A DNA stretch of 63,489 bases, the filler included, from Actinomycetota bacterium (GTDB taxonomy: Bacteria; Actinomycetota; CADDZG01; JAHWKV01; JAOPZY01): the NCBI GenBank assembly GCA_025963875.1. It is 4 parts of 4 records of this genome, joined end to end, with 100 filler letters (N's around TTAATTAATTAA, not from the genome) between each part and the next. Parts side by side here need not be neighbours in the genome. Positions count along the whole stretch, not along the records: positions 52,669 to 63,489 come from JAOPZY010000120.1; 3 more parts are not named here. One strand, given 5' to 3'. Position 1 is the first letter of the stretch. Each line of letters opens with the position of its first letter. Under the pieces are notes generated by a model. That model was not told the origin of the DNA and did no database searches. It saw only the letters and a program-made list of their open reading frames with translations. A program made the translations under genes and the position numbers. Positions 3,015 to 61,951 of the stretch are shown one piece after another.

Positions 3015-4919
3015 ATGACCCTGGCCCGCCGTCGACGTTGCCCGCCCTTGCGTCGCACCATGGTCCTCATCGCTGCGGCATGCAGCCTGGCTCTGTTGCC
3101 AGCAGGTGCATCGGCCGAGGGCCACATCCGGGGCGATCTGCCTGCGGGCGGGACGCTGCAGCGGGTGTTCGCCACCGCCGCGAGCGAGTTCCACGTTCCG
3201 GAGGAGGTGCTGCTGGCGCTCTCCTACAACGTGTCGCGGTGGGAGTGGCACGCCGGCCCGAGCACCAGCGGCGGCTACGGCGTCATGCACCTCATCGACG
3301 TCGGTCAGCCACCTCCGTCCGGGGTCCCCGCCCTGCCCGCGGCGGCAGCCCTCCTCGGCAGCTCCGACGAGGCAGTTCGCACCGATGTGGGGGAGAACGT
3401 CCGGGCCGGAGCCGCGCTGCTTGCCCGCTACCAACGTGAGGCGACGGGGTCGCTTTCCACCGACCCGGGGCAGTGGTACGCGGCAATCGCCCGGTACAGC
3501 GGGTCTCCGGACGTGGCGGGGGCGGGCCTCTTCGCCGACGACGCCTACGAGACGATGACCTCGGGGGCCACGCACACGACGGCTGCGGGCGAGACCTTCG
3601 CCCTGCCGGCGGATCCGGCGGTGCATCCCGACCGCGCAGCCCTCGATCGGCTGCACCTGCAACCCTCGTCCCCCCGGGTCGCGGAGTGCCCGCAGCGCCT
3701 GCATTGCGACTTCGTTCCGGCCGCGTATGCCCAAACCGATCCGGCGGACAAGGGCTCGTACGGCAACTACGACACGGCGAAGCGTCCCGGGGACGGCAAC
3801 GCGATCCGCTTCATCGTCATCCACGACACCGAGCTTCCCTACGATGCCACGCTCCAGGCCTTCCAGAACCCGGCCACGGCGGGCAGCGCGCACTACCTCG
3901 TCCGGTCCTCCGACGGCCACGTGACGCAGGTCGTTCCGACAAAGGACGTCGCATGGCACGCCGGCAACTGGTACGTGAATGCGGAGTCGATCGGTATCGA
4001 ACACGAGGGCATCGCCGTGGAAGGGGCGACCTGGTACACGGAGGCGCTCTACCGGTCGTCGGCCCGCCTCGTGCGCTACCTCGCCGAACGCTTCGACATC
4101 CCTCTGGACCGCCGGCACATCTTCGGCCACGACGAGGTGGCCGGGCCGGTGCAGGGCCAGGTTGCCGGCATGCACTGGGATCCGGGCCCGTTCTGGGACT
4201 GGGATCACTACATGGAACTGGTCGGGGCACGGGGTGCCAGCGAGGCCGGCCTGCCTTCCCCGGGCGACGCCGTGACGATCACCCCCGGCTTCGCCCACAA
4301 CACCCCGCCGGTGACCAGCTGCGACGCCTCGGGCTGCCGGCAGCTCCCGGCGCAGCCGTCCAACTTCGTCTACCTCCGCTCCGCCGCAGCGCCGGACGCG
4401 CCCCTGCTCTCGGAGCCGGCCCTGCATCCCGACGGCTCGGCGGGGACCACGCAGATCAACGATTGGGGGGACAAGGCGGTCACCGGGCAGACCTTCGTCG
4501 TCGCCGACCAGCGGAGTGAATGGACCGCCATCTGGTATGGGGGGCGTGCGGCGTGGTTCGACAACCCCGACGGCACCTTGACGGCTCCTGCGGAAGGTCT
4601 CCTCACGGTGACGCCGCGGGGCGGCGCTCCCGTGGCGGTCTACGGGCGGGCCTACCCCGAGCCGTCCGACTTCCCTGCCGGCATCCCCACCCCAACGGTG
4701 GTCCCGCTCGACGCGAGGATGCTGCCCGGCCAGGCCTACACGGCTGACCGTGCGGTGCCCGCTGCCTACTACTACGCAAAGACGATCGATGCCAGCCTCC
4801 CGGGCGACCACACGGTCGTCCGTGGCGAGACGCTCTACTACCCGATCGAGTTCAACCACCGCCAGGCCTACGTCAAGCTGAGCGACGTGCGGCTTGCAGC
4901 ACCATCCCCAGACCATTGA
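3015..4919 (+). CDS. Secreted N-acetylmuramoyl-L-alanine amidase (Amidase_2) with N-terminal lysozyme-like domain
   Basis: Signal peptide; IVIHDTE, SAHYLV, AWHAGN, IGIEHEG, GHDEV, HWDPG motifs; N-terminal GGYGVMHL / NVRAGAALL lysozyme-like segment. Start may be 3060. Confidence 0.88.
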   Translation: MTLARRRRCPPLRRTMVLIAAACSLALLPAGASAEGHIRGDLPAGGTLQRVFATAASEFHVPEEVLLALSYNVSRWEWHAGPSTSGGYGVMHLIDVGQPPPSGVPALPAAAALLGSSDEAVRTDVGENVRAGAALLARYQREATGSLSTDPGQWYAAIARYSGSPDVAGAGLFADDAYETMTSGATHTTAAGETFALPADPAVHPDRAALDRLHLQPSSPRVAECPQRLHCDFVPAAYAQTDPADKGSYGNYDTAKRPGDGNAIRFIVIHDTELPYDATLQAFQNPATAGSAHYLVRSSDGHVTQVVPTKDVAWHAGNWYVNAESIGIEHEGIAVEGATWYTEALYRSSARLVRYLAERFDIPLDRRHIFGHDEVAGPVQGQVAGMHWDPGPFWDWDHYMELVGARGASEAGLPSPGDAVTITPGFAHNTPPVTSCDASGCRQLPAQPSNFVYLRSAAAPDAPLLSEPALHPDGSAGTTQINDWGDKAVTGQTFVVADQRSEWTAIWYGGRAAWFDNPDGTLTAPAEGLLTVTPRGGAPVAVYGRAYPEPSDFPAGIPTPTVVPLDARMLPGQAYTADRAVPAAYYYAKTIDASLPGDHTVVRGETLYYPIEFNHRQAYVKLSDVRLAAPSPDH

Positions 4920-7330: not shown

Positions 7331-7975
7331 TCAGTCACAGGTGCCATTCTCGAGGAGCTCACGCAACTCTCGCAGGCAACGGGCCCTCGTGGGGCCGATG
7401 CTGCCGATCGGCATGCCGGTCAGCGTCGCGATTTCCTGGTAGCTGGGCTGGGGATCGGCAAACAGCAGCCGCAACAGCAATTGTGAACGTACGGGCAGCA
7501 CCGAGAACGCTCTCCACAGCTCTTCGCTTTGGGTACACCTCAGCATGCTCTCGGCGGGTTGATCGGAGAAGTCGCCGTCCAGGGGCTCGCTCAGGGTGGC
7601 CTCCTCCACCGGAACCTCCCGCTGTCTCCGTCTGATGACGGCAAGGGACTCGCGACCGGCGGTCGTGGCAAGCCAGGCACCAACTCGCTCGGGTTCGCGC
7701 AGGCGGTCGATGTGCTCTGCCAGACGAAGCCACGTGGTCTGGCTGACGTCGGCGGCATCCTGTTGACTGAGTCGGTAGCTTCGGGCCACGGACCAGACAA
7801 GCGGCGCGAACCTGTCGACAAGCGCCGACCAGGCGCCCGAGTCGCCACCTGAGGCATCCCGCACGAGCTGCGCCGGCTCACGATGATCCTTCTGGAGCTC
7901 CGGCGATAAAGAGTTGCCGTGGCCAACATGACCGCCGAGAATCGATGCTTCCATCGAATTCATCCCCTTCCCCAT
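7331..7975 (-). CDS. ECF RNA polymerase sigma factor
   Basis: Region 2 DAADVSQTTWLRL...AWLATTA; region 4 PSYQEIATLTGMPIGSIGPTRARCL. Start uncertain (7975/7963/7954). Confidence 0.88.
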   Translation of the reverse strand: MGKGMNSMEASILGGHVGHGNSLSPELQKDHREPAQLVRDASGGDSGAWSALVDRFAPLVWSVARSYRLSQQDAADVSQTTWLRLAEHIDRLREPERVGAWLATTAGRESLAVIRRRQREVPVEEATLSEPLDGDFSDQPAESMLRCTQSEELWRAFSVLPVRSQLLLRLLFADPQPSYQEIATLTGMPIGSIGPTRARCLRELRELLENGTCD

Positions 7976-9034: not shown

Positions 9035-10591
9035 ATGGCCGTGGCGGATCAGACTGGCGGAAACAGGGGTCGGCTGCTGGGAACGTTGCACGATGCCTGG
9101 TGGAGCCTCTATGACTATGGCGGAACTGTGGACCCCATCAGGGGTCCGTTTCAACGGCTGCCCTTGCCGGATGCTCTCCGGATACTTTCGTCCGATGACG
9201 CCGACAAACACCTCACTGAACCCGTCAGGTGGGCGGCGCTGACGGGGCTGGCCCGCTCCGGCCAGGGTGAACTCCCAGGGTACTCGGACTACGAGAGCGA
9301 CTACAAAAACTACTTCCAAAAGGTCCGGACAAAAATATCGTCAGACGTCATTGACAAGGGTGCGAAGGCCGTCCACGAGCACGCCATTCAAAGTGAGCCG
9401 GCAACACCCACCGAGGACATCTGCAACGTTGACCAGGTTGTCGTCGACGGTCAGGATGCCGTTTGGATTTTCTCCGAGTTCCAAACCAAGGCAGATCACG
9501 AACAGCTTGCGAATTGGGTCCAGCCGGAGAACTGGCCCAGGTGGGGGCCCATCCTGTTCAAGGAGATGAGGCCCGTTGGAGACCCCAAGTCTGTCCGGTC
9601 GGCGGCCGGAGAATGGCATGGGAACTATCGGGAAGTGGTTTGGCTCGCCGGGCGAGAACTCCATACCATCCTGCGTTGCGACGTGAAGGACGTCCCTCCT
9701 CAATGGGTCGGCATGACCTACGACCTGGTCCATAGCATCGATGATGTTCTGACCGTGGACCGTGGGTTTCTTCTCGCTACAAAGCTGCCGTCCGGGGATC
9801 ATCTCGTCAAGGCCTTGAAGATCGTGGGCTTCAAGGAGCCAGCGAGCAATTTGTTGGCCAGCCTCGTGTGCCCCCTGTGGACCGACTTCGCTCGCCAGGC
9901 CACAAGGAATGCGGAGCAACTTGCTCGTAAAGAGATTCCCGGGCCTTCCCACGGGCCGGGCAAGGCGAAGGCCGGCAACCCGCCCAACGGAGCGGACAGT
10001 CGATCCCAGGCCAACCCGGTCGAGGCCAGCACCGTCGCCTCCGATCTCAGCGGCCAATGGGTTCAGTCAATGGGCGAGACCGTCAACCACTACACCAAGC
10101 ATGCCCAGGACGTTGGGCTCAGACTCTTGGCCGGCAAGTACGGCCGCGAGGACGCTGCTCGGGACCGCCGTACGCTGTGCGTCTCGCTGGTTCGGGACTG
10201 GGGCCGCGCGTGGAAGGCTGGCATCGACTTCGTGAACGGGGTGGCCTCCATCGACGTGCCTTCCACCGTCGCCGGCCCCGCTGTGGCTGGTGGGACACGA
10301 GAGTTCTCCACCGTTGCGGTGGCACCGCCAGCGAAACAAGTGCCGCTCGGGCTCAGCGACTTCTCCCACGTCGACAGCGATCGGACGCCGCTCAAGTCTG
10401 CCCAGCTCACCCTGACACCGGCAGAGTTGGGCCCTCTGCAAGGCGCGCCAAGCGTCAGTGTCCGCATCGATGTCGACACCACCGGCGTGGAGCCGGGTCT
10501 CTACGTGGGCACCCTGCTGTCGGGCTCGGGCGGGAGCCAGCAGAAGACGGCGGCTCATGTCTACGTCTCCAAGGCTCAAGCGACCAGCTAG
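9035..10591 (+). CDS. Hypothetical protein; possible START/SRPBCC-like central domain and C-terminal Ig-like domain
   Basis: 518-aa ORF co-oriented with the cluster; VQPENWPRWGP followed by alternating beta strands resembles helix-grip folds; C-terminal VRIDVDTTGVEPGLYVGTL beta-sandwich pattern. Confidence 0.7.
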   Translation: MAVADQTGGNRGRLLGTLHDAWWSLYDYGGTVDPIRGPFQRLPLPDALRILSSDDADKHLTEPVRWAALTGLARSGQGELPGYSDYESDYKNYFQKVRTKISSDVIDKGAKAVHEHAIQSEPATPTEDICNVDQVVVDGQDAVWIFSEFQTKADHEQLANWVQPENWPRWGPILFKEMRPVGDPKSVRSAAGEWHGNYREVVWLAGRELHTILRCDVKDVPPQWVGMTYDLVHSIDDVLTVDRGFLLATKLPSGDHLVKALKIVGFKEPASNLLASLVCPLWTDFARQATRNAEQLARKEIPGPSHGPGKAKAGNPPNGADSRSQANPVEASTVASDLSGQWVQSMGETVNHYTKHAQDVGLRLLAGKYGREDAARDRRTLCVSLVRDWGRAWKAGIDFVNGVASIDVPSTVAGPAVAGGTREFSTVAVAPPAKQVPLGLSDFSHVDSDRTPLKSAQLTLTPAELGPLQGAPSVSVRIDVDTTGVEPGLYVGTLLSGSGGSQQKTAAHVYVSKAQATS

Positions 10592-10652: not shown

Positions 10653-13600
10653 GTGGCCGACACCGGGGGCGGCATGGATCGGTCAGCAGGCAACCAGCTG
10701 GTACAACTCGTCGACCGGTTGCTCGCGAAGGCTGAGAAGGCCTTGGCGCACGGTGCGTGGACCGTCGCCGAGGAGATCCTGGGGGATATCCTCGCGGTCG
10801 CGCCTGAAGACCGGCGAGCTGCCGAGATGCTTCAGCTCGCCAGGCTGCAGGACCCTCTGCCGGGTGGCCTGCGAGCCATGGTGACCCTCCTGTTCTCGGA
10901 CATCGTGCGATCCACTCCGATGGCCGAGCATGCCGAACCCGAGACCATGCGTGACCTGTTCAGGATCTACCGCGACGCGGCAACCGGTGCGATCGATGCT
11001 CTGGAGGGCCAGGTCCTGCAGTTCCAGGGCGACGGAGTCTTCGCCTGCTTCGGGCATCCCAAGGCTCATGGCGACGACGCCCGGCGGGCCGTGCTCGCTG
11101 GCCTGGACATCGTGGAGCGCATGCTCAAGGCCGGTCCGGACATCCGCCGGCGCCTCGGCATCGAGGCTCCCGTCCGCGTCGGCATCCACAGTGGCACGGT
11201 GGTCCTGGCGCCGACATTGGGTGAAGGCGGCCTCCCCGGTGTCGTCGGGGCGGCGACCAACATGGCTGCTCGGATCCAGGCGGTGGCCGAGCCCGACTCG
11301 GTGGTTATCAGCGACGCTACGAGACCCATGGTTGAACACAGCTTCGAGCTGTCTTCCCTCGGGAAACAGACGTTGAAGGGCGTTGGCCGTCCGGTGGAGG
11401 TCTTTCGCGTCGCGCGAACTCGGTCTGCCGGCGCCCAACTGGACGCGGTCAAGCTTCATTCCGCCACAGTCGTCGGCAGGGAGTCCGTCCAGCACCGGCT
11501 GAGCGGCCTGTGGAGCGAGATTCAGCGGGGATCCGAGCGGGGGGATGCATCGGAACGGCAGGCGGTGGTGCTGCGGGGACCATCCGGCATCGGGAAGTCG
11601 CGCCTCGCGGCAGATCTGTGTGATCAAGTGCGCGCGGGAGAAGGAGTTGCCCTTCGGGCTGGATGTTCGCCATTCCATACCAACGTCGCCCTGTGGCCCA
11701 TAGCGCGCTCCCTCGAGCGCCGACTGGGACTCGTTCCCGAGCAGACGCCGGACGAACAGATCAAAATCCTGAGACATCGGTCTGCAGGCATCGGATTCGA
11801 TTCTCCGGCCGCCGTCCCCCTAGTGGCGTCGATGTTGGGGTTGGCCAGCACCGGGGAGACGGCACTCTCAGATCTGGATCCTCTCGCGCGCCGCGCCGAA
11901 TTGCTCAGAGTCATCGTTCAGTGGCTGGCTCTTGTCGCTCGACAGACGCCCTGTCTCCTGGTTGTGGACGATCTGCAGTGGTCGGACCCCACGACAATGG
12001 AGTATCTCGGTCTGCTGGTCGACAAGCCCGTTCCGGGTCTGATGTTGGTTGTGGGAAGCCGGGAGCCTGTGCCGGCGGAGTGGGCGAACTCCGTCGCGGA
12101 CATCGAATTGGAGCCTCTCGGCACGGATCATGCCCTTGCACTTGCGGCCGAGATCGCGCAGAGCCGCGGCCTGGATGCGGATGAGCGGCGCCGGATCGTC
12201 GAGCGCAGCGGCGGGATCCCATTGTTCATCGAAGAGCTGGCACGCAGCGGTGCGACCTCGCGGCCGCAGGGGCACCTGCCGCTGCGGCTCCAGGAGCTTC
12301 TCGAGGCGCGGCTGCGAGCGCCCGGCATCGACCTTCGGGTGGCGCAGCTGGCGGCCACGTTTGGGTCGGTGTTCGATCGCGTCCTGCTCGACCAGCTCGC
12401 CGGCGCCCCGGTCGAACGGGCGGTGTCCGGTCTGGAGGCGGCCGGGATCATCGAACCGCTCGGCGAAACTGATCGACGCGCGTACCAATTCAGCCACGTC
12501 CTGCTCCGCGACGCTGCCTATGAGACGCAGGTGCTCGAGGTCCGCAAGGACACCCACCTTCGGATCGCCGGCTTGCTGAGGGCAGCCCAAAGCCGTTCTC
12601 ATGGCGACCTTGCCGTGGTCGCCCAGCACCTCGACCTGGCCGGCGAAGTCGCCGAGGCCGTGAGTGCCTACATCGATGCTGCAGGGCAGGCCCAGGCCGG
12701 AGCCAGCCACCTCGAGGCCCGGCGATTGCTTACTCGGGCTCTCGCATTGCTGGAGAAGAATCCTCAGAGCGAGGCTCGTGACCTCACCGAACTCGCAGCC
12801 CGAATGCGGAGAGGCTTGAGCGCAAGCTGGGTTTTTGGCTATCCCCATCCTGAAGTCCTGAGCGATTTCCAGACCGCCGACGACCTCTGCCGCCGCTACG
12901 TGCACCGGCCCGAAGTGATGCCGGCGGCCATCGGGGTCTTCAGTGCCTTCTTCGCCAGGGGCGAACTCGGCACCGCACGCACGGTCCTCGAGCGCGTGGT
13001 TCCGCTGACCGAAGGCCCCGAAGGAGCGTGGTTCGCCCCCGAGGTCAAGTCATGCCTGGGGTTCGTGGTTTTTCACACGGGAGACATCCCCCAGGCCCGG
13101 AGCATCCTCGAAGAGGCCTGGGAAGCGTTCCTCCGTCGACCACCGGAGGAGACGGTTTCGCCGTTGTGGCTATTGCCTCATGACCCTGTGGCGCTAACAG
13201 CGGCTGCCCTTTCCTGTTTGGCCGGCCTTCAGGGCCGGATGTCCGACAGCGAGACCTGGCAGCGTCGTGCCGTCGAGCGTACGGAGGGGATGGCCTTCCC
13301 CAAGGGACCGTTCACCCTGGCCTTCATCTCCCTGTACCTGGCATGGCTCCGGATGATCCTCCACGATCCCGCGGGTACCTACCGCTACGGCCGTCAGGCG
13401 ATCGAAATCGCACAGCGCCATGGCTTCCACTACTTCGTCACCGTAGGCCGCCCTTATGTGCTCATACGTGAGCCGGGCGTCCCCGCCGATCCCGAATTTA
13501 TTCGGCGTACCGAGGCAGATATTGAAGCCATCGGCCACGGGGCCTTTCGGGCCGCGTACCTGGGCAATATGGCCAGAAGCCAGGTGTTGCTCGGCGACGT

Positions 13601-13943
13601 CGCACAGGCGCTCGAAACGCTCGACCACGCCCTCCTGCTTACGCAGAAGCAGGGGGAATGGATCCACCAGCCAGACCTCCTGCGCCTGCGTGCCGAGCTC
13701 ACGGCATCGGTTCACCCCGACCGGATGGACGACGTGGTGGACGATCTGCGCTCCGCCGTCGAGGTCGGGCTTGCGCAGGGGTCGCTCGTGCTGGCGCTTC
13801 GCGCCGCCACCGACCTGGCACGGCTTTCCCTCGAGGCCCGGCCCGCCGACTGGCGCAGCGTCCTGAGCAGCGTGTACGACCTGCTGCCGCCCGACTCCGA
13901 GTGTCCCGGGATCCTCGACGCCCGCGCGCTGCTCGATGGCTGA
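10653..13943 (+). CDS. Class III nucleotidyl cyclase fused to STAND/AAA ATPase and TPR region
   Basis: TLLFSDIVRST, QFQGDG, VRVGIHSG, TNMAARIQ; Walker A GPSGIGKS, Walker B LLVVDDLQWSD; GGIPLFIEE; helical C-terminus. Confidence 0.92.
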   Translation: MADTGGGMDRSAGNQLVQLVDRLLAKAEKALAHGAWTVAEEILGDILAVAPEDRRAAEMLQLARLQDPLPGGLRAMVTLLFSDIVRSTPMAEHAEPETMRDLFRIYRDAATGAIDALEGQVLQFQGDGVFACFGHPKAHGDDARRAVLAGLDIVERMLKAGPDIRRRLGIEAPVRVGIHSGTVVLAPTLGEGGLPGVVGAATNMAARIQAVAEPDSVVISDATRPMVEHSFELSSLGKQTLKGVGRPVEVFRVARTRSAGAQLDAVKLHSATVVGRESVQHRLSGLWSEIQRGSERGDASERQAVVLRGPSGIGKSRLAADLCDQVRAGEGVALRAGCSPFHTNVALWPIARSLERRLGLVPEQTPDEQIKILRHRSAGIGFDSPAAVPLVASMLGLASTGETALSDLDPLARRAELLRVIVQWLALVARQTPCLLVVDDLQWSDPTTMEYLGLLVDKPVPGLMLVVGSREPVPAEWANSVADIELEPLGTDHALALAAEIAQSRGLDADERRRIVERSGGIPLFIEELARSGATSRPQGHLPLRLQELLEARLRAPGIDLRVAQLAATFGSVFDRVLLDQLAGAPVERAVSGLEAAGIIEPLGETDRRAYQFSHVLLRDAAYETQVLEVRKDTHLRIAGLLRAAQSRSHGDLAVVAQHLDLAGEVAEAVSAYIDAAGQAQAGASHLEARRLLTRALALLEKNPQSEARDLTELAARMRRGLSASWVFGYPHPEVLSDFQTADDLCRRYVHRPEVMPAAIGVFSAFFARGELGTARTVLERVVPLTEGPEGAWFAPEVKSCLGFVVFHTGDIPQARSILEEAWEAFLRRPPEETVSPLWLLPHDPVALTAAALSCLAGLQGRMSDSETWQRRAVERTEGMAFPKGPFTLAFISLYLAWLRMILHDPAGTYRYGRQAIEIAQRHGFHYFVTVGRPYVLIREPGVPADPEFIRRTEADIEAIGHGAFRAAYLGNMARSQVLLGDVAQALETLDHALLLTQKQGEWIHQPDLLRLRAELTASVHPDRMDDVVDDLRSAVEVGLAQGSLVLALRAATDLARLSLEARPADWRSVLSSVYDLLPPDSECPGILDARALLDG

Positions 13944-20965: not shown

Positions 20966-22219
20966 TCAGCGACTGCACGCCGCGGCGCGCTCGAGGAGCA
21001 CCGTCCGAACGATGCCGTTCCGGGTCATCGACGCCGCCCGCTCGAACTCGATCCTCGCCTCGTCGAGGCGGCCCAGCTTCACGAGGAGGTCGCCACGCAC
21101 GGTCGGCAGGAGGTGGTAGCCCTTGAGGGAGGGCTCCGAGGTCAGGGCGTCGACGACCTCAAGGCCCACCGCCGGACCGAAGGCCATCGACAGCGCGACC
21201 GCACGGTTCAGCTCGACGACCGGTGACGGCACAAGCTGGGCGAGCCCGTCGTAGAGGGCGGCCATCCGCACCCAGTCCGTCTCCTCCGCAGTGCGGGCCC
21301 GGGCGTGGCAGGCGGCGATGGCTGCCTGCAGGGCGTAGGGGCCGAGCGCAACGCCGAGGGCCTCGGCCCGCTCCAGCGCCGCCAGGCCGCGACCGACGAG
21401 GACCCAGTCCCAGCGGGCGCGGTTCTGGTCGAGCAGCGTGACGGGCTCTCCCGACGGGCCGGTCCGGGCCGCCGAGCGCGACGCCTGGATCTCCATGAGT
21501 GCGACAAGGCCGTGGACCTCCGGCTCGCGAGGAACGAGCTCGGCCAGGATGCGGCCGAGACGGAGCGCCTCCTCGCAGAGCGCAGGCCGCATCAGGTCGT
21601 CGCCCGAGGTGGCCGAGTAGCCCTCGTTGAAGATGAGGTACAGGACCTCGAGCACCGACGACAGGCGTGCGGCGCGCTCGGCCCCGGTGGGGACCTCGAA
21701 GGGGACGTGCGCCTCGGCGAGGGTGCGCTTGGCCCGCACGATCCGCTGCGCGACCGTCGCCTCCGGGGCGAGGTAGGCACGTGCGATCTCGTCGGTCGTG
21801 AGCCCCCCGACGAGGCGCAGCGTGAGCGCCACGCGGGCCTCGGGCGAGAGCACCGGGTGACAGGCGGTGAACATGAGGCGCAGGAGGTCGTCGCCCATGT
21901 CCTCGTCTTCGATCGCGGCGTCGAGATCCGGGACAGCCGTCTCCTGCTGGGCAGCGAGCTCCTCGTGTTTGCGCTCGAGCAGCTTGGCGCGCCGGATCCG
22001 GTCGATCGCACGGTGCTTGCCTGTGGCCATGAGCCAGGCGCCCGGGTTATCCGGGACGCCCGACTCGGGCCACTGTTCCAGGGCAGCGACCAGCGCATCC
22101 TGGGCGAGCTCCTCGGCCAGGCCGATGTCACGCACGATCCGTGCGAGACCTGCCACGAGCTTGGCGGACTCGATCCTCCAGACCGCCTCGATCGCACGAT
22201 GCGTGTCGGCAACCGTCAC
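20966..22219 (-). CDS. ECF42-type sigma factor with C-terminal TPR extension
   Basis: AEELAQDALVAALEQWP, DDLLRLMFTACHP, YLIFNEGY, GPYALQAAIAACHA; paired with a DGPF protein. Confidence 0.92.
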   Translation of the reverse strand: MTVADTHRAIEAVWRIESAKLVAGLARIVRDIGLAEELAQDALVAALEQWPESGVPDNPGAWLMATGKHRAIDRIRRAKLLERKHEELAAQQETAVPDLDAAIEDEDMGDDLLRLMFTACHPVLSPEARVALTLRLVGGLTTDEIARAYLAPEATVAQRIVRAKRTLAEAHVPFEVPTGAERAARLSSVLEVLYLIFNEGYSATSGDDLMRPALCEEALRLGRILAELVPREPEVHGLVALMEIQASRSAARTGPSGEPVTLLDQNRARWDWVLVGRGLAALERAEALGVALGPYALQAAIAACHARARTAEETDWVRMAALYDGLAQLVPSPVVELNRAVALSMAFGPAVGLEVVDALTSEPSLKGYHLLPTVRGDLLVKLGRLDEARIEFERAASMTRNGIVRTVLLERAAACSR

Positions 22220-34712: not shown

Positions 34713-35516
34713 TCACCGGCTGTCCCGGCTCACGGCTCGCCGGCCGGGCCTTGGCGGGACGACGACGAGTGTCCCGTCGCTGTCCACCACCGTCACCGGT
34801 GTCCCGTAACAGCGCTCCAACAGCTCGGGCACGAGGACCTCGCTCGCCATCCCGTCGGCGACCACGACGCCGCCGTTGAGCAGGAGGAAATGCTCGGCGT
34901 ACTGGCCGGCGAGGGTGAGGTCGTGCAGCGCCGAGATCACGGTCAGCGACCGGGCCAGCCGGAGCTCGTCCACCAGGGTCAGGACCTCGTGCTGGTGGCC
35001 GAGGTCGAGGGCGGTGGTCGGCTCGTCGAGGAGTAGCAGGGAGGGCTCCTGCGCCAGCGCCCTGGCGATGACCGCCCGCTGGCGTTCGCCCCCGGACAGG
35101 GTGGAGATCGGCCGCCGTGCCAGCGCCTCCAGGCCGAGGTGGTCCATCAGGCCGCCGACCACCCGCTTGTCCGCCACGCCCTCGAAGCCGAACAGCGTGA
35201 TGTGGGGCGTCCGCCCGAGCAGCACGTAGTCGGCCACCGACATCCCGTCCGGGAAGACCGGGTGCTGCGGCACGACGGCGACGGTCTGGGCCCGGCGGCG
35301 GGCGGTGAGCCCTCCGAGGTCGCGTCCCTCCAGCCGGATCGAGCCTTCGTAGCCGACGCTGCCGGCGAGGCAGCGCAGCATCGTGGTCTTGCCCGCCCCG
35401 TTGGGGCCGATGACCGCCAGCCACTGGCCGCCGCCCACATCGACGTCGACCCGGTCCAGGATGGTGGCCCCGTCGATGGCCACCGTCAGGCCGCGGATGC
35501 TCAGGGCGCCGGTCAC
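34713..35516 (-). CDS. Cobalamin/iron-chelate ABC transporter ATP-binding subunit (BtuD-like)
   Basis: GPNGAGKT, LSGGERQR, LLLDEPT, LHDL; GTGA overlap with permease stop. Confidence 0.92.
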   Translation of the reverse strand: MTGALSIRGLTVAIDGATILDRVDVDVGGGQWLAVIGPNGAGKTTMLRCLAGSVGYEGSIRLEGRDLGGLTARRRAQTVAVVPQHPVFPDGMSVADYVLLGRTPHITLFGFEGVADKRVVGGLMDHLGLEALARRPISTLSGGERQRAVIARALAQEPSLLLLDEPTTALDLGHQHEVLTLVDELRLARSLTVISALHDLTLAGQYAEHFLLLNGGVVVADGMASEVLVPELLERCYGTPVTVVDSDGTLVVVPPRPGRRAVSRDSR

Positions 35517-36625
35517 TGCCGGGGCACCCGCCGGGCTAGGAGCGCCAGGAAAAAGGGCGCCCCCACGAGGGCCGTGATGACGCCGATGGGCACCTCGCCG
35601 GGGGCGATCACTGTCCGGGCGAACAGGTCGGCCACCACGAGGAAGGCGCCGCCTGCCACCAGCGAGAGGGGGATCACCGCCCGGTTGGCGGTGCCGACGA
35701 GGAGGCGGACCGTGTGCGGGACGATGATGCCGACGAAGCCGATCAGGCCACTGACCGACACTGCGGCCGCCGTGGCGAGTGAGGCGGCGATGACCACGGT
35801 CATCCGGATTCGGTTGACGGGCAGCCCCAGGCTGGCGGCTTCCTCGTCGCCGACAGCGAGGACGTCGAGGGCCCGCCGGTGCAGCATCAGCGCAACCGTG
35901 GCGACGACCGCCCACGGCAGCATCAGCTCGACGTCGTGCCAACCGGCGGTGGACAGCCGCCCCAGGATCCAGGAGTACACAATCCGCAGGCTGGCGTCGG
36001 CCCGCTGCTGGAAGTAGGTCTGGAGCGCGGTGAACAGGCTTGTCACGGCGACGCCGGCGAGGATCAGCGAGGCGGTCGATCGGATGCGGTTCCGGCCACG
36101 ACCGAGCAGCCATGTCGCCGCCACGGCGACGAGAGCCCCGGCGAAGGCAGCCGCCTGGACCGGCCCGACCGGCCCGATCCCGCCCTGGATGTCCAGGGTG
36201 ATCACCAGGGTCGCCCCGAGGCCCGCACCGGCGGCGGCGCCGAGAAGGTAGGGGTCTGCCAGGGGGTTGCGGAAGACGCCCTGGTAGGCGCTGCCCGCCA
36301 GGCTCAGCATCGACCCGACGAGCAGGCCCAGCACGACCCTCGGCAGCCGGATCTGCCAGAGGATCGCCGACTGGGTGGCGGAGAGGCCCGATCGTGTGTG
36401 CACGACGGGCAGCCGCCCGAGCACCTCCAGTGCGATGGCCCTGGGAGGAAGCGGCACCGGGCCGATCAGCACACCGGCCGTCACCGCCCCCACCAGCACG
36501 GCAAGCACGCAGGCCCACCCGACGACCGGCGGCCGGCCCCGAACCTGCCCCCACCGGCGAACCCCGGCCGGCGCGCCCACAGGGGCAGCCGGGACCTTGG
36601 GCCGGTGGACCGCAGGCGTGCCCAC
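35513..36625 (-). CDS. Cobalamin/iron-chelate ABC permease (BtuC/FecCD)
   Basis: IRLPRV, FRNPLADPYLLG, GDEEAASLG, GLIGFVGIIVPH, IGVITALVGAPFF. Start approximate. Confidence 0.92.
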   Translation of the reverse strand: MGTPAVHRPKVPAAPVGAPAGVRRWGQVRGRPPVVGWACVLAVLVGAVTAGVLIGPVPLPPRAIALEVLGRLPVVHTRSGLSATQSAILWQIRLPRVVLGLLVGSMLSLAGSAYQGVFRNPLADPYLLGAAAGAGLGATLVITLDIQGGIGPVGPVQAAAFAGALVAVAATWLLGRGRNRIRSTASLILAGVAVTSLFTALQTYFQQRADASLRIVYSWILGRLSTAGWHDVELMLPWAVVATVALMLHRRALDVLAVGDEEAASLGLPVNRIRMTVVIAASLATAAAVSVSGLIGFVGIIVPHTVRLLVGTANRAVIPLSLVAGGAFLVVADLFARTVIAPGEVPIGVITALVGAPFFLALLARRVPRQ

Positions 36626-36627
36626 GC

Positions 36628-37572
36628 TCAGGAGGCCGGGACGGATCGGTCGGCGTCGACGATCTTCGAGAGCAGGTCCGTCACCCGGGGGCCCCACCGC
36701 GAGGCGATGTCGTCGTCGAGGGCGACCACCCGCCCGTTCTTCACGGCGGCGATCGTCGAGTACCCGGGCCGGGCCGACACGGTGGCGGCGCTCTGGCCAC
36801 AGCACTTGGTGTCGGCCAGGAAGATGAGGTCGGGGTTGTTGGACAGCAGCGTCTCGGCGTTGAGCTGGGGGTAGTCGGTCGAGGAGCCCGCCCGGTCGGC
36901 GATGTCGACCATGCCGGCCGCCGTGAACAGGTTGCCGACGAAGGTGTGCGAGGTGACGGTGAACAGGGTCTGATCGAGTTCGTAGTAATAGGTCAGCGGC
37001 TTGGCCCGCTTCGGCAGCTTGGCGAGGAGGCCCGTCACCTTGCCCTTCATGGTCTGGACGAGTCCGGCTGCCTCGGAGGTGTGGCCGCTCGCAGCGCCGA
37101 GCTGCGTGATCTCGGCGTAGGAACCGTCGAGGTTGCTCGGCGCCGGGTCGAGCAGCGTCGGGATGCTGAGAGCCTTGAGCTGACCCACCAGGCCCTTGAC
37201 GTCGTCGCTCACCACGACGAGGTCGGGGCGGTACCCGGCAATGGCCTCGACGTTAGGCGTGAAACCCGACAGGCTGGTCTTCGGGACCCCCGTGGGGTAG
37301 TTGGACTGGTCGTCGACTGCCACAACCTGCGGCCCGGCCCCGATGGCGAACAGGTCCTCGGTCAGGCTTGCCGACAGGGAGACGATCCGTGACGGCCGTG
37401 CCGGCAGCGTGACCGGGCCGTTGGTGGCCTGGAGCGTGGCAGGGAAGGTTGCGGACGCCACCGGGCTTGGCGACGGCGTCGCCTTGACCGCCTTCGACGA
37501 GGAACATCCGCCGAGCGCGGCTGCGGGGACGACGGCGGCCAGGACAGCGAAGGACCAGACCCGAACTCTCAC
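36628..37572 (-). CDS. Cobalamin-binding lipoprotein (BtuF-like)
   Basis: RBS AGGAGG + GTG; lipobox LGGC; RIVSLS..TEDLFAIGAG, PDLV, SRWGPR; downstream of cobalamin riboswitch. Confidence 0.9.
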   Translation of the reverse strand: MRVRVWSFAVLAAVVPAAALGGCSSSKAVKATPSPSPVASATFPATLQATNGPVTLPARPSRIVSLSASLTEDLFAIGAGPQVVAVDDQSNYPTGVPKTSLSGFTPNVEAIAGYRPDLVVVSDDVKGLVGQLKALSIPTLLDPAPSNLDGSYAEITQLGAASGHTSEAAGLVQTMKGKVTGLLAKLPKRAKPLTYYYELDQTLFTVTSHTFVGNLFTAAGMVDIADRAGSSTDYPQLNAETLLSNNPDLIFLADTKCCGQSAATVSARPGYSTIAAVKNGRVVALDDDIASRWGPRVTDLLSKIVDADRSVPAS

Positions 37573-37667
37573 ACTGCACCTCCTGTCGGTCGAAGAGCGG
37601 CCTCGGTCGACAGGAGGCGGTTGGCCTTCTGACACGAGAACCCCTTCCTCGAGGGCGTTCGTGGTCC

Positions 37668-37760
37668 TTTCCGGCAGGCGACCTGGCTCGGTCCGCGATG
37701 AGGGACCTCACAGTTGCGGGACAGCGCCGGAATCGCACCGGCTTCGCTGCCGTAAAGGCT
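37668..37760 (-). ncRNA. Cobalamin riboswitch (compact form)
   Basis: Minus strand GAAGCCGGTGCGATTCCGGCGCTGTCCCGCAACTGTGA...GAGCCAGGTCGCCTGCCG with B12-box elements, upstream of a Btu-like operon. Confidence 0.9.
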
Positions 37761-37889
37761 GGCGTGAGTTTAGTACCGCCGGGCGGGCCGGGCTAGCGCC
37801 CCCGTTGGGGAGGCGCCGTGGGCCCGGAGTGCGGCCGGCGGTAGGCTAGAATCTGGCCCGAAGGAGCGGCCCAGCCGCTCCTTTTGAAT

Positions 37890-37960
37890 GGCGGCGTGGC
37901 CGAGTGGTTAGGCAGCGGTCTGCAAAACCGCGCACGGCAGTTCAATTCTGCCCGCCGCCT
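37890..37960 (+). tRNA. tRNA-Cys (GCA)
   Basis: Acceptor GGCGGCG/CGCCGCC + U73; anticodon loop CTGCAAA; T-loop TTCAATT; no encoded CCA; TAGAAT -10 at 37847-52. Confidence 0.95.
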
Positions 37961-38175
37961 CTTCTTCTTTCCTTGGGGTGTTCCCGAAAGGGAGCGTCCA
38001 GTGTTCATGAAAGTCCCGGGCGGGGGCCCCGTTGGGCATCTCCAGGGCTGATGAGGCCTTCCGATTGCCTCCTTACAGCGTCCTTCGGGCCTCGGGCTCT
38101 GCTCCTTCGCCCACCCAGAACGCGCTGAAGCCGGCCCTGGTTCTTGGCCGGCTAGTTGCTCGGGATGGCGGTGGG

Positions 38176-59301: not shown

Positions 59302-60744
59302 GTGGGGCACCAGTCGCCGATTCCCCCCGGGAGGGGCACCCTGGCTGTTCGGGAAGCATCCGTCACGGCACTACCGCACCGCCCGCTGCGCCGCGTCGCG
59401 ATGCTCGTGGTGCATTCGAATCCGGTGGTCGAGCCGGGGGTTGGTGACGCCGGGGGCATGACCGTGTACGTCCGGCAGATGGCCAGGTCGCTGGCTGCCC
59501 GGGGACTGGACGTCGACATCTACACCCGGCGGGACAGCGCCGAGACACCGGACGTGACGAGCCTGTTCCCCGGCGTCGTGGTGCGCCAGATCCCGGCCGG
59601 CGCCCCGGGGCTGTCCAAGGGGGAGATCCCCGCCTACCTGCCCGAGTTCACCGCCAACCTGCTCCACGAGGTCGAGGCCCTCGGCGTGCGCTACGACCTG
59701 ATCCACAGCCACTACTGGCTCTCCGGCAGGGTCGCCTCCATCCTCTCGGCCCGCTGGGGCATCCCGTTCGTCCACACGTTCCACACGCTTGGGCGCGTGA
59801 AGAACGAGGGCCGTGCCAACGGCGAGCCGGTCGAGCCCGACTGCCGGCTCCGGGGGGAAGCGCGGGTGATCGCCGAGGCGAACGCCATCGTCGCCTCCGC
59901 CCCCGACGAGCGGGAATGGCTGATCGACCTCTATGCCGCCCATCCCGAGCGGATCCACGTCATCCCTCCCGGCGTCGACCATTCCACGTTCCGCCCCGGC
60001 GACCGTAAAGCCGCCAAGGTGGCGTTGGCGTCCTCGGGAGCCTTGTCGGGCGGACTCTCGGGCAAGCGGGTGCTGCTGTTCGTCGGCCGCCTCCAGCCGC
60101 TGAAGGGCGCCGACACTGCGATCGAGGCGCTCGGTCACCTCATTGCCTGGGGCCGCCTCCGCAAGGAGGAGGCGGTGCTCGTGATCGTCGGCGGAGCGAG
60201 TGGCGTCGCGGGGGCGTCCGAGCCGGCGCGCCTGCAACGCCTCGCCGAGGACCTCGGGCTCGCCGACGTGGTGCGGTTCGTGGCCGCCCAGCCCCAGAAC
60301 GAGTTGCCCGGTTACTACCAGGCGGCCGACGTCTGCCTCGTCCCGTCCCACGCCGAGTCATTCGGCCTCGTGGCCCTCGAGGCCCAGGCCTGTGGCACGC
60401 CGGTCGTGGCGGCAGGGGTCGGCGGGCTCCGCTCCATCGTGCGGCATGGCCAGACCGGCTTCCTGGTCCAGCCCGGGGCGAGCGCCGCATTCGCGGAGCG
60501 GGTATGGCGGATTCTCTCGGACCAGCCACTCGCCGCGAACATGGGCAGGCTGGCGGTCTGCGGCTCGTCGGACTTCTCGTGGGAGCGCTCCGCCGATGAG
60601 CTAATCGACCTTTACACGCATAGTGTCCGCCAATTGGCGGAGGCTTCCGAGGTCCAAAGAGGCGTCGTCGCTGGAGCGGGAAGAAACTTCACAGCGCGGG
60701 AAGAAATCTCCGGTCACACGCTTGACGCACCCGGCGTCGGATAA
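59302..60744 (+). CDS. mshA: D-inositol-3-phosphate glycosyltransferase (MshA-like, GT4)
   Basis: GDAGGMTVYV, YDLIHSHYWLSG, HTFHTLGRVKN, GRLQPLKG, ESFGLVALEAQACGTPV. Start uncertain. Confidence 0.82.
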   Translation: MGHQSPIPPGRGTLAVREASVTALPHRPLRRVAMLVVHSNPVVEPGVGDAGGMTVYVRQMARSLAARGLDVDIYTRRDSAETPDVTSLFPGVVVRQIPAGAPGLSKGEIPAYLPEFTANLLHEVEALGVRYDLIHSHYWLSGRVASILSARWGIPFVHTFHTLGRVKNEGRANGEPVEPDCRLRGEARVIAEANAIVASAPDEREWLIDLYAAHPERIHVIPPGVDHSTFRPGDRKAAKVALASSGALSGGLSGKRVLLFVGRLQPLKGADTAIEALGHLIAWGRLRKEEAVLVIVGGASGVAGASEPARLQRLAEDLGLADVVRFVAAQPQNELPGYYQAADVCLVPSHAESFGLVALEAQACGTPVVAAGVGGLRSIVRHGQTGFLVQPGASAAFAERVWRILSDQPLAANMGRLAVCGSSDFSWERSADELIDLYTHSVRQLAEASEVQRGVVAGAGRNFTAREEISGHTLDAPGVG

Positions 60745-60751
60745 GTATCTT
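60722..60751 (+). promoter_or_regulatory. sigmaA-type promoter
   Basis: TTGACG-N18-TATCTT; predicted +1 near 60758. Confidence 0.7.
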
Positions 60752-60757
60752 GCCTCC

Positions 60758-61071
60758 TGTCCCAAGCGGTCGGCAGAGGGTTCGACAGAGTCGAAGCCAG
60801 CCCGCCGGGAGCGCACTGGAAGGGGCATCGGGCAGACTCGGCGGTCGGCGGGAGCGTTGGGAAGGGCCTTTCCCGACGCCTCGGTGATAGCCAGGGCACG
60901 CCGGTCCTGGTAGGAGCACTTCACGGTAGGCGAGCGAGATTCGACGGCCTCCAAGGTCGCTTGGGACACTTAGGGCCCAAGGTGCTGAAGGGCCGGCGGT
61001 TGGAGTGTGTGGGGAAGTGCGCTCCGGCTGTCGTCCCCGAGTACCTTGGGCCTTAACGCGTCTCGGTTTTT
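60758..61071 (+). ncRNA. Candidate large structured ncRNA (6S/Ms1-like or new)
   Basis: 11-bp terminal stem 60758-68/60958-68; internal hairpins; 3' rod with 17-bp stem 60970-86/61040-56 and many G-U pairs; T-run 61067-71. Confidence 0.65.
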
Positions 61072-61105
61072 CCGTCCCAGAGGCAGCGTGCTAATTTCTC
61101 CAGCG

Positions 61106-61951
61106 ATGCCCACCACCACTGAAGTGCCCGAGCGCACGATCCCCGTCGGCTTCCAGGGCGAGGCGGGGGCCTACAGCCAGCGCGCCGTCAAGCGGCTCTT
61201 CGCCGGGGCCACGTCCGTGCCCTTCCATTCGGTCCACCGGGTGTTCGAGGCCGTCGAGATCGGCACGGTCGCCTACGGGGTGGTGCCGCTCGAGAACAGC
61301 CACGCCGGGTCGATCAACGAGAGCTACGACCTGCTCGTGCGCCACGGCGTGTCGATCGTCGCCGAGACCATCGTGCGGATCTCGCACTGCCTGCTCGGCC
61401 TGCCGGGCACCCCGCTCGACGAGGTCCGCACGGTCTACTCGCATACCCAGGCGCTCGACCAGTGCTCGGAGTTCCTGGACTCGCTGCAGGTCGAGCGCAT
61501 CGCCGTCCACGACACCGCGGGGGCCGCAAGGATCCTCGCCGAGCGCCGGCAGTCCGCCTCGGCGGCCATCGCCTCGGCGGAGTCTGCGGAGTTGTACAAC
61601 CTCGAGGTGCTGGCCGCCGACATCGAGGACAGGGCCGACAACTCGACGAAGTTCGTTGCCATCGCCCGCGGCAACTCCGACCTCTTCGGGCCGCCGGAGA
61701 AGACCTCGGTCGTCTTCGCCACCGCCGACATGCCCGGCGCCCTCTACCGCTGCCTCAAGGAGTTCGCCGACCGCCACCTCAACCTCTCCAAGTTGGAGCA
61801 CCGGCCCTCGCGGGCCAAGGCGTGGCAGTCGAACTTCTACGTGGATTTCGACGCCCCGGTGCACGACCCCGCCGCCCAGGAGGCGCTGCAGGCGGTCGCC
61901 GAGCTCACGTCGTTCCTGCGCGTGCTCGGCTCGTATCCCAAAGCCCGCTGA
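61106..61951 (+). CDS. pheA: Prephenate dehydratase
   Basis: FQGEAGAYS, PLENS, SHTQALDQC, NSTKF, ACT domain PGALY..NLSKLEHRP, LGSYP. Confidence 0.95.
   Translation: MPTTTEVPERTIPVGFQGEAGAYSQRAVKRLFAGATSVPFHSVHRVFEAVEIGTVAYGVVPLENSHAGSINESYDLLVRHGVSIVAETIVRISHCLLGLPGTPLDEVRTVYSHTQALDQCSEFLDSLQVERIAVHDTAGAARILAERRQSASAAIASAESAELYNLEVLAADIEDRADNSTKFVAIARGNSDLFGPPEKTSVVFATADMPGALYRCLKEFADRHLNLSKLEHRPSRAKAWQSNFYVDFDAPVHDPAAQEALQAVAELTSFLRVLGSYPKAR

Follow-up and report, generated by a model that had tools for sequence, protein, structure and literature searches.

A candidate clade-restricted structured RNA gene between an mshA-like gene and pheA in uncultured Actinomycetota

What lies between an mshA-like glycosyltransferase gene and pheA in the genome of an uncultured Actinomycetota bacterium? 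The stretch of DNA in which this question arises (hereafter the window) comprises 63,489 nt in four joined parts, and the part that holds the locus comes from record JAOPZY010000120.1. An earlier reading of the window, made from its letters alone (the sequence-only reading), had proposed a structured plus-strand RNA with its own promoter, and both the fold and the promoter turned out to be conserved in relatives. We regard it as very probable that a conserved, structured, plus-strand non-coding RNA is real at this locus, and as probable that it forms an independent transcription unit, while its function can be approached more tentatively. Our best reading, which we put forward as a working proposal that could well be wrong, is a new clade-restricted, independently transcribed small RNA (sRNA) that probably acts in trans through an invariant hairpin with the loop GGGGAAG and most likely binds a protein. 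The elements on which this reading is built are as follows, where MFE denotes minimum free energy.

60676..60689, plus strand: upstream direct repeat 1 (GCGGGAAGAAACTT), an exact copy of the repeat motif at about -82 to -69 from the predicted start
60696..60709, plus strand: upstream direct repeat 2 (GCGGGAAGAAATCT), an equally exact copy 20 bp downstream of repeat 1
60722..60751, plus strand: sigma-A/sigma-70-type promoter, TTGACG-N18-TATCTT, the only promoter-like site in 60400-61400 (mean in shuffles 0.0)
60758..60968, plus strand: domain 1, a 211-nt imperfect rod closed by stem P1 in the MFE fold
60854..60879, plus strand: apical hairpin of domain 1 in the MFE fold, with a second G-rich motif (UGGGAAGG)
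60970..61056, plus strand: rod 2, a hairpin of 87 nt beginning 1-2 nt downstream of P1
61005..61022, plus strand: invariant 18-mer (GTGTGTGGGGAAGTGCGC), comprising a G-U-rich top stem and the apical loop GGGGAAG (61011-61017)
61067..61071, plus strand: T-run, a possible but uncertain 3' end, 10 nt past the stem of rod 2

Is the fold stronger than chance would give? The plus strand (318 nt from 60758) reached an MFE of -172.7 kcal/mol vs -143.8 ± 5.1 in shuffles (z -5.69), with none of 100 shuffles as good, and on the reverse complement 34 of 100 shuffles did as well (z -0.51). Domain 1 is predicted to form a single, roughly 100-bp imperfect rod with 78 pairs and an 11-bp apical stem. The 11-bp perfect stem that the sequence-only reading placed at its base is present as an 11-nt perfect inverted repeat (60758-60768 / 60958-60968), which the MFE fold lengthens to the 14-bp closing stem P1 (60758-60771 / 60955-60968). 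Among the inner helices proposed at the same time, GAGG/CCUC and GCGUUGGGAAG/UUUCCCGACGC recur in the MFE fold, while CCAGGG/TCCTGG does not, its bases pairing elsewhere in the rod. Rod 2 contains 36 pairs, of which nine are G-U, arranged in a 17-bp basal stem (60970-60986 / 61040-61056, a 17-nt repeat with 88% complementarity) and an inner stem of 16 bp; the basal stem is thus as first described, and the inner stem is longer than the 14 bp originally given. Because rod 2 begins so close to P1, the two rods could stack end to end. The MFE fold as a whole has 24 G-U pairs among its 117 and is an unbranched rod in which no junction or pocket-like core is predicted. Its longest conserved unpaired run is the GGGGAAG loop, with a mean unpaired probability of 0.93 in the ensemble folds of six sequences, a thermodynamic prediction rather than a probing result.

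To place this fold in an evolutionary setting, we scanned the contigs of GTDB genomes for PheA proteins, which yielded 80 loci out of 252 confirmed stretches, and the element was searched for in a set of 81 sources (663 kb) made up of pheA-centered loci. Five of the 80 fetched loci carry it (L001, L010, L002, L003, and L011), with agreement between blastn, nhmmer, and a covariance model of rod 2 (R1), and all five are metagenome-assembled genomes titled “Actinomycetota bacterium”. A full-alignment nhmmer search and an R1 cmsearch over the 81 sources returned these five and the window only, the next-best matches standing at E 2.2 and 15.2 bits, respectively, and a second model, R2, run over 16 of the 81 sources, likewise gave no copies beyond the six. 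The element was not found at the pheA loci L004-L009 and L012-L015, where another gene adjoins pheA upstream, nor was there a match in plasmid and phage collections (blastn in “distant” mode). The family as seen here is therefore narrow, amounting to six species-level genomes plus traces in eight short public sequences.

Within these six sequences the structure has been kept while the letters changed, which is what the sequence-only reading had called for as a check. Plus-strand z values range from -5.3 to -8.9 and minus-strand values from -0.06 to -4.8 (60 shuffles for each of the six, apart from the 100 used for the window above), and R1 scores are 80-104 bits on the plus strand vs 19-31 bits on the minus strand; together with the G-U pairs, these values show the plus-strand polarity that had been proposed. 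RNAalifold recovered 81 pairs, 21 of them with compensatory changes. In the 52 reliably aligned pairs of P1, P2, and rod 2, 95.2% of the cells can pair, vs 33-49% when the partners are slid by 1-3 columns, and 13 pairs change on both sides vs 4.3 ± 1.6 in column shuffles (0 of 500 as good). Column shuffles can be exceeded by related sequences even without structure; the slid-partner control retains relatedness, yet may favor a structure derived from these very sequences, and its outcome here was clear-cut. Taken separately, P1 is paired in 96% of cells with compensatory changes in 3 of its 14 pairs (for example AAGCG/CGCUU in the window vs GAGGA/UCCUC in L011), and the 34 pairs tested in rod 2 are paired in 96-98% of cells, eight of these pairs being compensatory. 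For the interior of domain 1, the assessment used the four closest sequences only (70 pairs, P1 and P2 included), where 89% of cells are paired and seven pairs are compensatory (0 of 500 shuffles as good). Against the model built from these four, L011 and L003 score low (44.7 and 20 bits, respectively), so the domain 1 interior, whose identity is 35-74%, drifts, and the modeled fold of L003 may be partly branched there. Rod 2 is 76-95% identical to its relatives, compared with 74-91% for pheA DNA and 71-86% for mshA, and the 18-mer is identical in all six. A motif like the G-rich one at the tip of domain 1 occupies the same alignment place in five of the six, being absent from L002.

Could the conservation instead be that of a protein-coding gene, either the minus-strand open reading frame (ORF) 60601-60969 (122 aa) or some other frame across the region? 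The window does keep this ORF open, and an exhaustive HMMER search of 1.84 billion representatives gave eight hits, three of which were dropped as spurious because long proteins matched in five short stretches each. The remaining five are clusters of similar short predicted proteins (E 2e-67 to 2e-6), none identical to the window or the fetched loci, and they comprise eight sequences, all unnamed and on short contigs (about 1 kb or less for those with contig data). Two different frames are needed, however, to align each of the five with the window, L001, or L010, and what they conserve reads antisense to the repeats, the promoter, and the 5' strand of P1. Since the similarity hops between frames, the conservation is at the nucleotide rather than the codon level. 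Stop-free frames also vary among the six loci, none of those in L001, the closest relative, corresponds to the ORF, and the closest sequences are separated by indels of 1 and 4 nt; the 122-aa ORF matches 0 Pfam families, and a 55-aa minus-strand ORF over rod 2 has no homologue. Codon-level constraint on 60601-60969 was the outcome that the sequence-only reading had said would speak against an RNA, and no frame conservation is seen. A coding gene is accordingly the reading to which we give almost no weight. The public proteins predicted antisense to 60604-60969 (minus strand), that is, to the RNA's 5' half and its promoter, are probably false gene calls, and they show that the element is present in further public sequences.

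Where would transcription of such an RNA start, and where would it end? The TTGACG-N18-TATCTT promoter is found where it was first proposed. A promoter scan calls the homologous site in the window, L001, L010, and L002 (4/6) and misses L003 and L011, in which we read by eye CTTGAC, a 19-nt spacer, and TATCTT, and CTTGAC, a 17-nt spacer, and TACTCT (a weak -10 box), respectively. The -35 sequence CTTGAC is invariant in all six, the -10 box is a conserved TAnnnT (TATCTT in four of them, TATCGT and TACTCT in one each), and the distance from the -10 box to TGTCCC, the first bases of P1, is 5-6 nt throughout. Given this conservation of the promoter elements, the start is placed at the first base of P1 (predicted 60758/60759). 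Upstream of the -35 box lie two conserved, A-rich, 14-nt direct repeats (GCGGGAAGAAAYYT), the core positions of which are invariant in the six sequences; the repeat segment is 62-97% identical to that of the relatives, exceeding the promoter spacer, and the repeats may represent an UP-like element or a site for an activator or other factor. Exact matches to the motif GCGSGAASAAAYYT in the 63-kb window are confined to repeats 1 and 2, and the one further site at two mismatches (9764-9777; 3 matches in all vs 3.2 expected) offers no hint of a regulon. GGGAAG is found four times in a span of 340 nt, once in each DNA repeat and once at the tip of each rod, and we considered whether the RNA loops act as decoys that mimic the DNA repeats. 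This idea was rejected, the likeness being superficial because the repeats of the relatives read GCGAAG or GCGAAC.

At the other end, the T-run noted by the sequence-only reading is present, though it sits 10 nt beyond the stem of rod 2, and no canonical terminator is called there. L002 differs further inside the RNA, in that a short hairpin and, after it, a run of seven T's take the place of the domain 1 tip (3678-3703), which the scan does call a terminator (2 called in this region vs 0.8 expected); this terminator-like hairpin, if active, would truncate the RNA in that species.

The two neighboring genes, whose features are given below, frame the same arrangement (mshA-like gene, RNA, pheA) in the window and the five loci.

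59395..60744, plus strand: upstream neighbor, an MshA-like GT4 glycosyltransferase gene (NCBIfam TIGR03449, 433 bits, cut-off 462.5)
61089..61108, plus strand: extended -10-like box of pheA (TGCTAATTT), outside the RNA and 8 nt ahead of the ATG at 61106

The TIGR03449 match ends at residue 411 of the 449 in the MshA-like protein (window position 60627), and the last 38 codons of the ORF (60628-60744, plus strand) overlap the upstream repeats and promoter of the sRNA, with the stop codon 2 nt upstream of its -10 box. The ORF reaches the promoter region in the window, L001, and L010, but ends before the repeats in L002, L003, and L011, so the 38-codon tail looks like accidental read-on. Downstream, L010 has about 285 nt of unrelated sequence (about 3715-3997) between the RNA and pheA, compared with 40-100 nt at the other loci. 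The pheA start codon follows TAnnnT, mostly as TGnTAnnnT, by 6-9 nt in the window, L001, L010, L011, and L002 (the last without TGn), and the pheA frame opens just one to six codons before the ATG in L001, L010, and L011. The same -10/start arrangement occurs at pheA in L004 and L006, which have no RNA at the locus, while Shine-Dalgarno-like leaders precede pheA in L003, L005, L007-L009, and L012. A start-abutting -10 arrangement marks leaderless mRNAs in Actinobacteria, and the sequences suggest that the pheA mRNA is leaderless. An N-terminal extension of PheA from the GTG at 61007 through rod 2 was also considered, being open in the window, L002, and L003, and was discarded as it is closed just before the ATG in L001, L010, and L011.

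What, then, might the RNA do? In our best reading, transcription from a housekeeping-type promoter of its own would begin at the first base of P1 and give an RNA of about 300 nt, separate from the pheA transcript and presumably stable, with its 5' end protected within P1. A partner, most probably a protein, would dock specifically on the invariant hairpin, for which the fast-evolving yet always paired rods would act as a scaffold. We prefer a protein partner because invariance over 18 nt fits a protein better than a 7-nt pairing seed, and put the chance of a trans-acting protein binder somewhat below even. RNA polymerase is our leading guess for that partner, by analogy with Ms1, 6S, and CoRP, which are clade-specific RNAs of rod shape, and with low confidence. 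With lower confidence still, the element may stand for a new class of abundant lineage-specific regulator, a counterpart of 6S, Ms1, and CoRP that would dock RNA polymerase or another global factor without a bubble, by means of the invariant G-U-rich hairpin carried on two end-to-end rods (about 140 bp in all).

Several observations weigh against this proposal. The start, the end, and the abundance of the RNA are predictions, no canonical terminator was found by the scan after rod 2 in the window or the five loci, and the statistics come from just six sequences of one narrow clade; the top five pairs of rod 2 are invariant, and as they never vary they are neither supported nor refuted by covariation. 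The RNA also lies directly upstream of pheA and co-oriented with it at all six loci, and in L003 a Shine-Dalgarno-like sequence replaces the start-abutting -10 box, so that read-through into pheA is possible in that species. For RNA polymerase as the partner in particular, the lack of a bubble counts against it: counting columns whose mean unpaired probability exceeds 0.6, the ensemble folds of the six sequences contain no conserved unpaired run longer than 7 nt, and the run of that length is the apical loop. The flanking genes, an MshA-like GT4 gene and pheA (prephenate dehydratase), differ from the Ms1 neighbors described in the available excerpts of PMC9130861, and no match to 6S was obtained at the gathering score (window and five loci) or at E ≤ 10 (the elements of the window, L011, and L003).

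The position next to pheA would also suit a cis-acting leader, a possibility that the sequence-only reading did not raise, either riboswitch-like or an attenuator, or transcriptional interference, with rod 2 as a conditional terminator. U-rich runs do follow rod 2 within 0-20 nt in three of the six sequences (the window, L003, and L011), and the hexamer pair CCCAAG/CUUGGG recurs in P1 and at the base of rod 2 (60761-60766 / 60960-60965 in P1, 60977-60982 / 61044-61049 in rod 2), so that a strand swap is sterically possible and compatible with 92% of cells. This alternative pairing shows 0 compensatory changes and does not rise above shuffles (500/500), and we did not adopt it as a switch. Nor is there a conserved expression platform, since identity in the stretch that separates rod 2 from pheA is 21-61% and its length varies from 40 to about 285 nt, while the unbranched rod offers no junction or pocket-like core and Rfam gives no T-box, leader, or riboswitch match for the element. 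Synteny cannot single out pheA because mshA is equally tightly linked (upstream in 5/5 loci). With pheA mostly served by its own start-abutting promoter (a -10 box in five of the six RNA loci and in the two relatives that lack the RNA, L004 and L006) and with an unconserved spacer, a pheA leader is unlikely, and position is the one link seen between the RNA and pheA. The linkage to mshA raises the converse thought that the element is the 3' untranslated tail or terminator region of that gene, perhaps processed and without a function of its own, as in three of the six (the window, L001, and L010) the ORF continues into the promoter region with no terminator between. Against this stand the conserved -35/-10 pair, which in each of the six sequences is set precisely for a start on the base that opens P1, the conserved upstream repeats, and an 18-nt invariant apex that would not be expected of a mere terminator; in L002, moreover, the ORF stops about 230 nt further upstream, with a terminator-like hairpin in the gap before the promoter. 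We consider an mshA tail to be quite improbable, more so than a pheA leader.

A different division of labor is conceivable for an independent RNA, namely a base-pairing sRNA or sponge in which the GGGGAAG loop and the motif at the tip of domain 1 pair with C/U-rich targets, the rods serving to present the loops and to stabilize the molecule. The loop is, after all, the longest conserved unpaired run and identical in 6/6, a second GGGAAG-like motif caps domain 1 in 5/6, and the plus strand holds four GGGAAG in 60678-61017 vs about one per 1.8 kb elsewhere in the window (for a motif chosen post hoc). Yet the invariance spans 18 nt including the stem, which exceeds the needs of a seed, and few sRNAs that present a seed are built on as much as 300 nt of rod. 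A search of the window for the reverse complement of the apex gave 10 matches vs 8.4 ± 2.7 expected, the closest apart from the apex itself carrying two mismatches, and no target was identified. A sponge is thus held as a minor possibility, and a protein-docking sRNA with its own promoter is the reading we retain.

Other features of the window lie away from this locus. An adenosylcobalamin (AdoCbl, B12) riboswitch (37629-37772, minus strand; 54.1 bits, gathering score 50) is found upstream of a BtuC-like ABC permease gene (35516-36805, minus strand) and is divergent from a tRNA-Cys gene (anticodon GCA; 37890-37961, plus strand), the sole tRNA gene in the window. Three further genes (7334-7975 and 20969-22219, both minus strand, and 10653-13940, plus strand) comprise two for ECF-type sigma factors, one with a long C-terminal extension, and one for a 1096-aa protein that resembles a kinase/cyclase fusion of thiazole/oxazole-modified microcin (TOMM) systems (352 bits, below the cut-off).

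Stand-alone structured bacterial RNAs of about 300 nt are few, and 6S, Ms1, CoRP, transfer-messenger RNA (tmRNA), RNase P, and signal recognition particle RNA are central to transcription or translation. The present element, from a lineage of which only metagenome-assembled genomes are known, is a covariation-supported candidate with a predicted promoter and start and with an invariant hairpin; its narrow distribution and lack of a cultured host limit its immediate impact. Even if it binds no polymerase it would be a new RNA family, and the RNA gene corrects antisense “hypothetical protein” calls. It also bears on a proposal, in the available excerpts of PMC11077062, that many polymerase-binding RNAs go unrecognised because they are lineage-specific.

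How does the element compare with RNA families that are already known? At the gathering score of Rfam 15 it has no match, the five loci have none at all, and the matches in the window are the tRNA and the AdoCbl riboswitch. At E ≤ 10, the elements of the window, L011, and L003 gave only chance hits below threshold to microRNA, small nucleolar RNA, and long non-coding RNA models, where E-values multiplied by 4227 families could hide a very weak match; the hits of rod 2 were to microRNA-precursor models, at 23.3 bits vs a gathering score of 150. The sequence-only reading had assigned no family, and Rfam agrees. ARAGORN reported 0 genes in 60000-61500, and thus no tmRNA or tRNA-like RNA; such a reading had been suggested by a UUCGA-like stretch, which is not conserved, and was dropped. 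A possible likeness of the apex to helix IV of 5S rRNA and a Shine-Dalgarno-like role for it were also weighed and not adopted. A literature search by motif and topic, judged from the hits as listed, found no published account of the element, the hits to the apex being a 12-mer in unrelated eukaryotic papers.

The likeness to 6S and Ms1 raised by the sequence-only reading goes no further than size and rod shape, as neither the bubble, nor the neighborhood, nor a 6S match is seen. In the available excerpts of PMC4191392, Ms1 is about 300 nt long, a single-gene unit with a sigma-A-like promoter, and forms a long hairpin with a conserved bubble, which is required for core binding, and two short hairpins near the ends. 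Like Ms1 (MTS2823 / scr3559), the element is a stand-alone gene of about 300 nt (about 313 to the T-run) in an actinobacterial host, with a sigma-A-like promoter, a long hairpin, and an extra hairpin near an end, and its sequence is weakly conserved outside close relatives, as excerpts of PMC9130861 describe for Ms1. Unlike Ms1, it has one long extra hairpin (87 nt) instead of two short ones, its 5' end closes domain 1 only and leaves the second rod outside the closure, and no central bubble is predicted, the internal loops in the MFE folds of the six sequences being 1-4 nt only. Ms1 is flanked by genes for a HAD-IB hydrolase (phosphoserine phosphatase) and an oxidoreductase (excerpts of PMC9130861), and among the 36 window proteins scanned there is no HAD-IB hydrolase, the sole HAD-named match being a P-type ATPase. 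Four 9-nt motifs of the RNA, sought as exact matches, have 0 occurrences in the supplement file of PMC9130861, which prints the S. coelicolor Ms1 sequence.

6S (RF00013) is a single rod whose large, unpaired central bubble mimics an open promoter; it binds the sigma-A/sigma-70 holoenzyme and templates product RNA. The element shares with 6S the form of a rod-shaped, abundant-type RNA encoded on its own, with a closing stem that buries the 5' end, and differs in its length (about 300 nt vs about 200 nt, from the excerpts of PMC11077062), in having two rods rather than one, and in the lack of a predicted bubble resembling an open promoter. The same excerpts describe CoRP of Corynebacterium as a 516-nt RNA cleaved to 318 + 198 nt and encoded between tRNA genes, in a lineage in which neither 6S nor Ms1 is recognizable, which indicates that polymerase-binding RNAs can be lineage-specific, and they propose that each species has one abundant polymerase-associated RNA that may differ from 6S and Ms1. 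The present element resembles CoRP, as described there, in being a clade-restricted structured RNA, and differs in that the polymerase binding of CoRP is experimental whereas the element is known here from sequence. Set beside 6S, Ms1, and CoRP, it is placed in none of their families and at most works like them.

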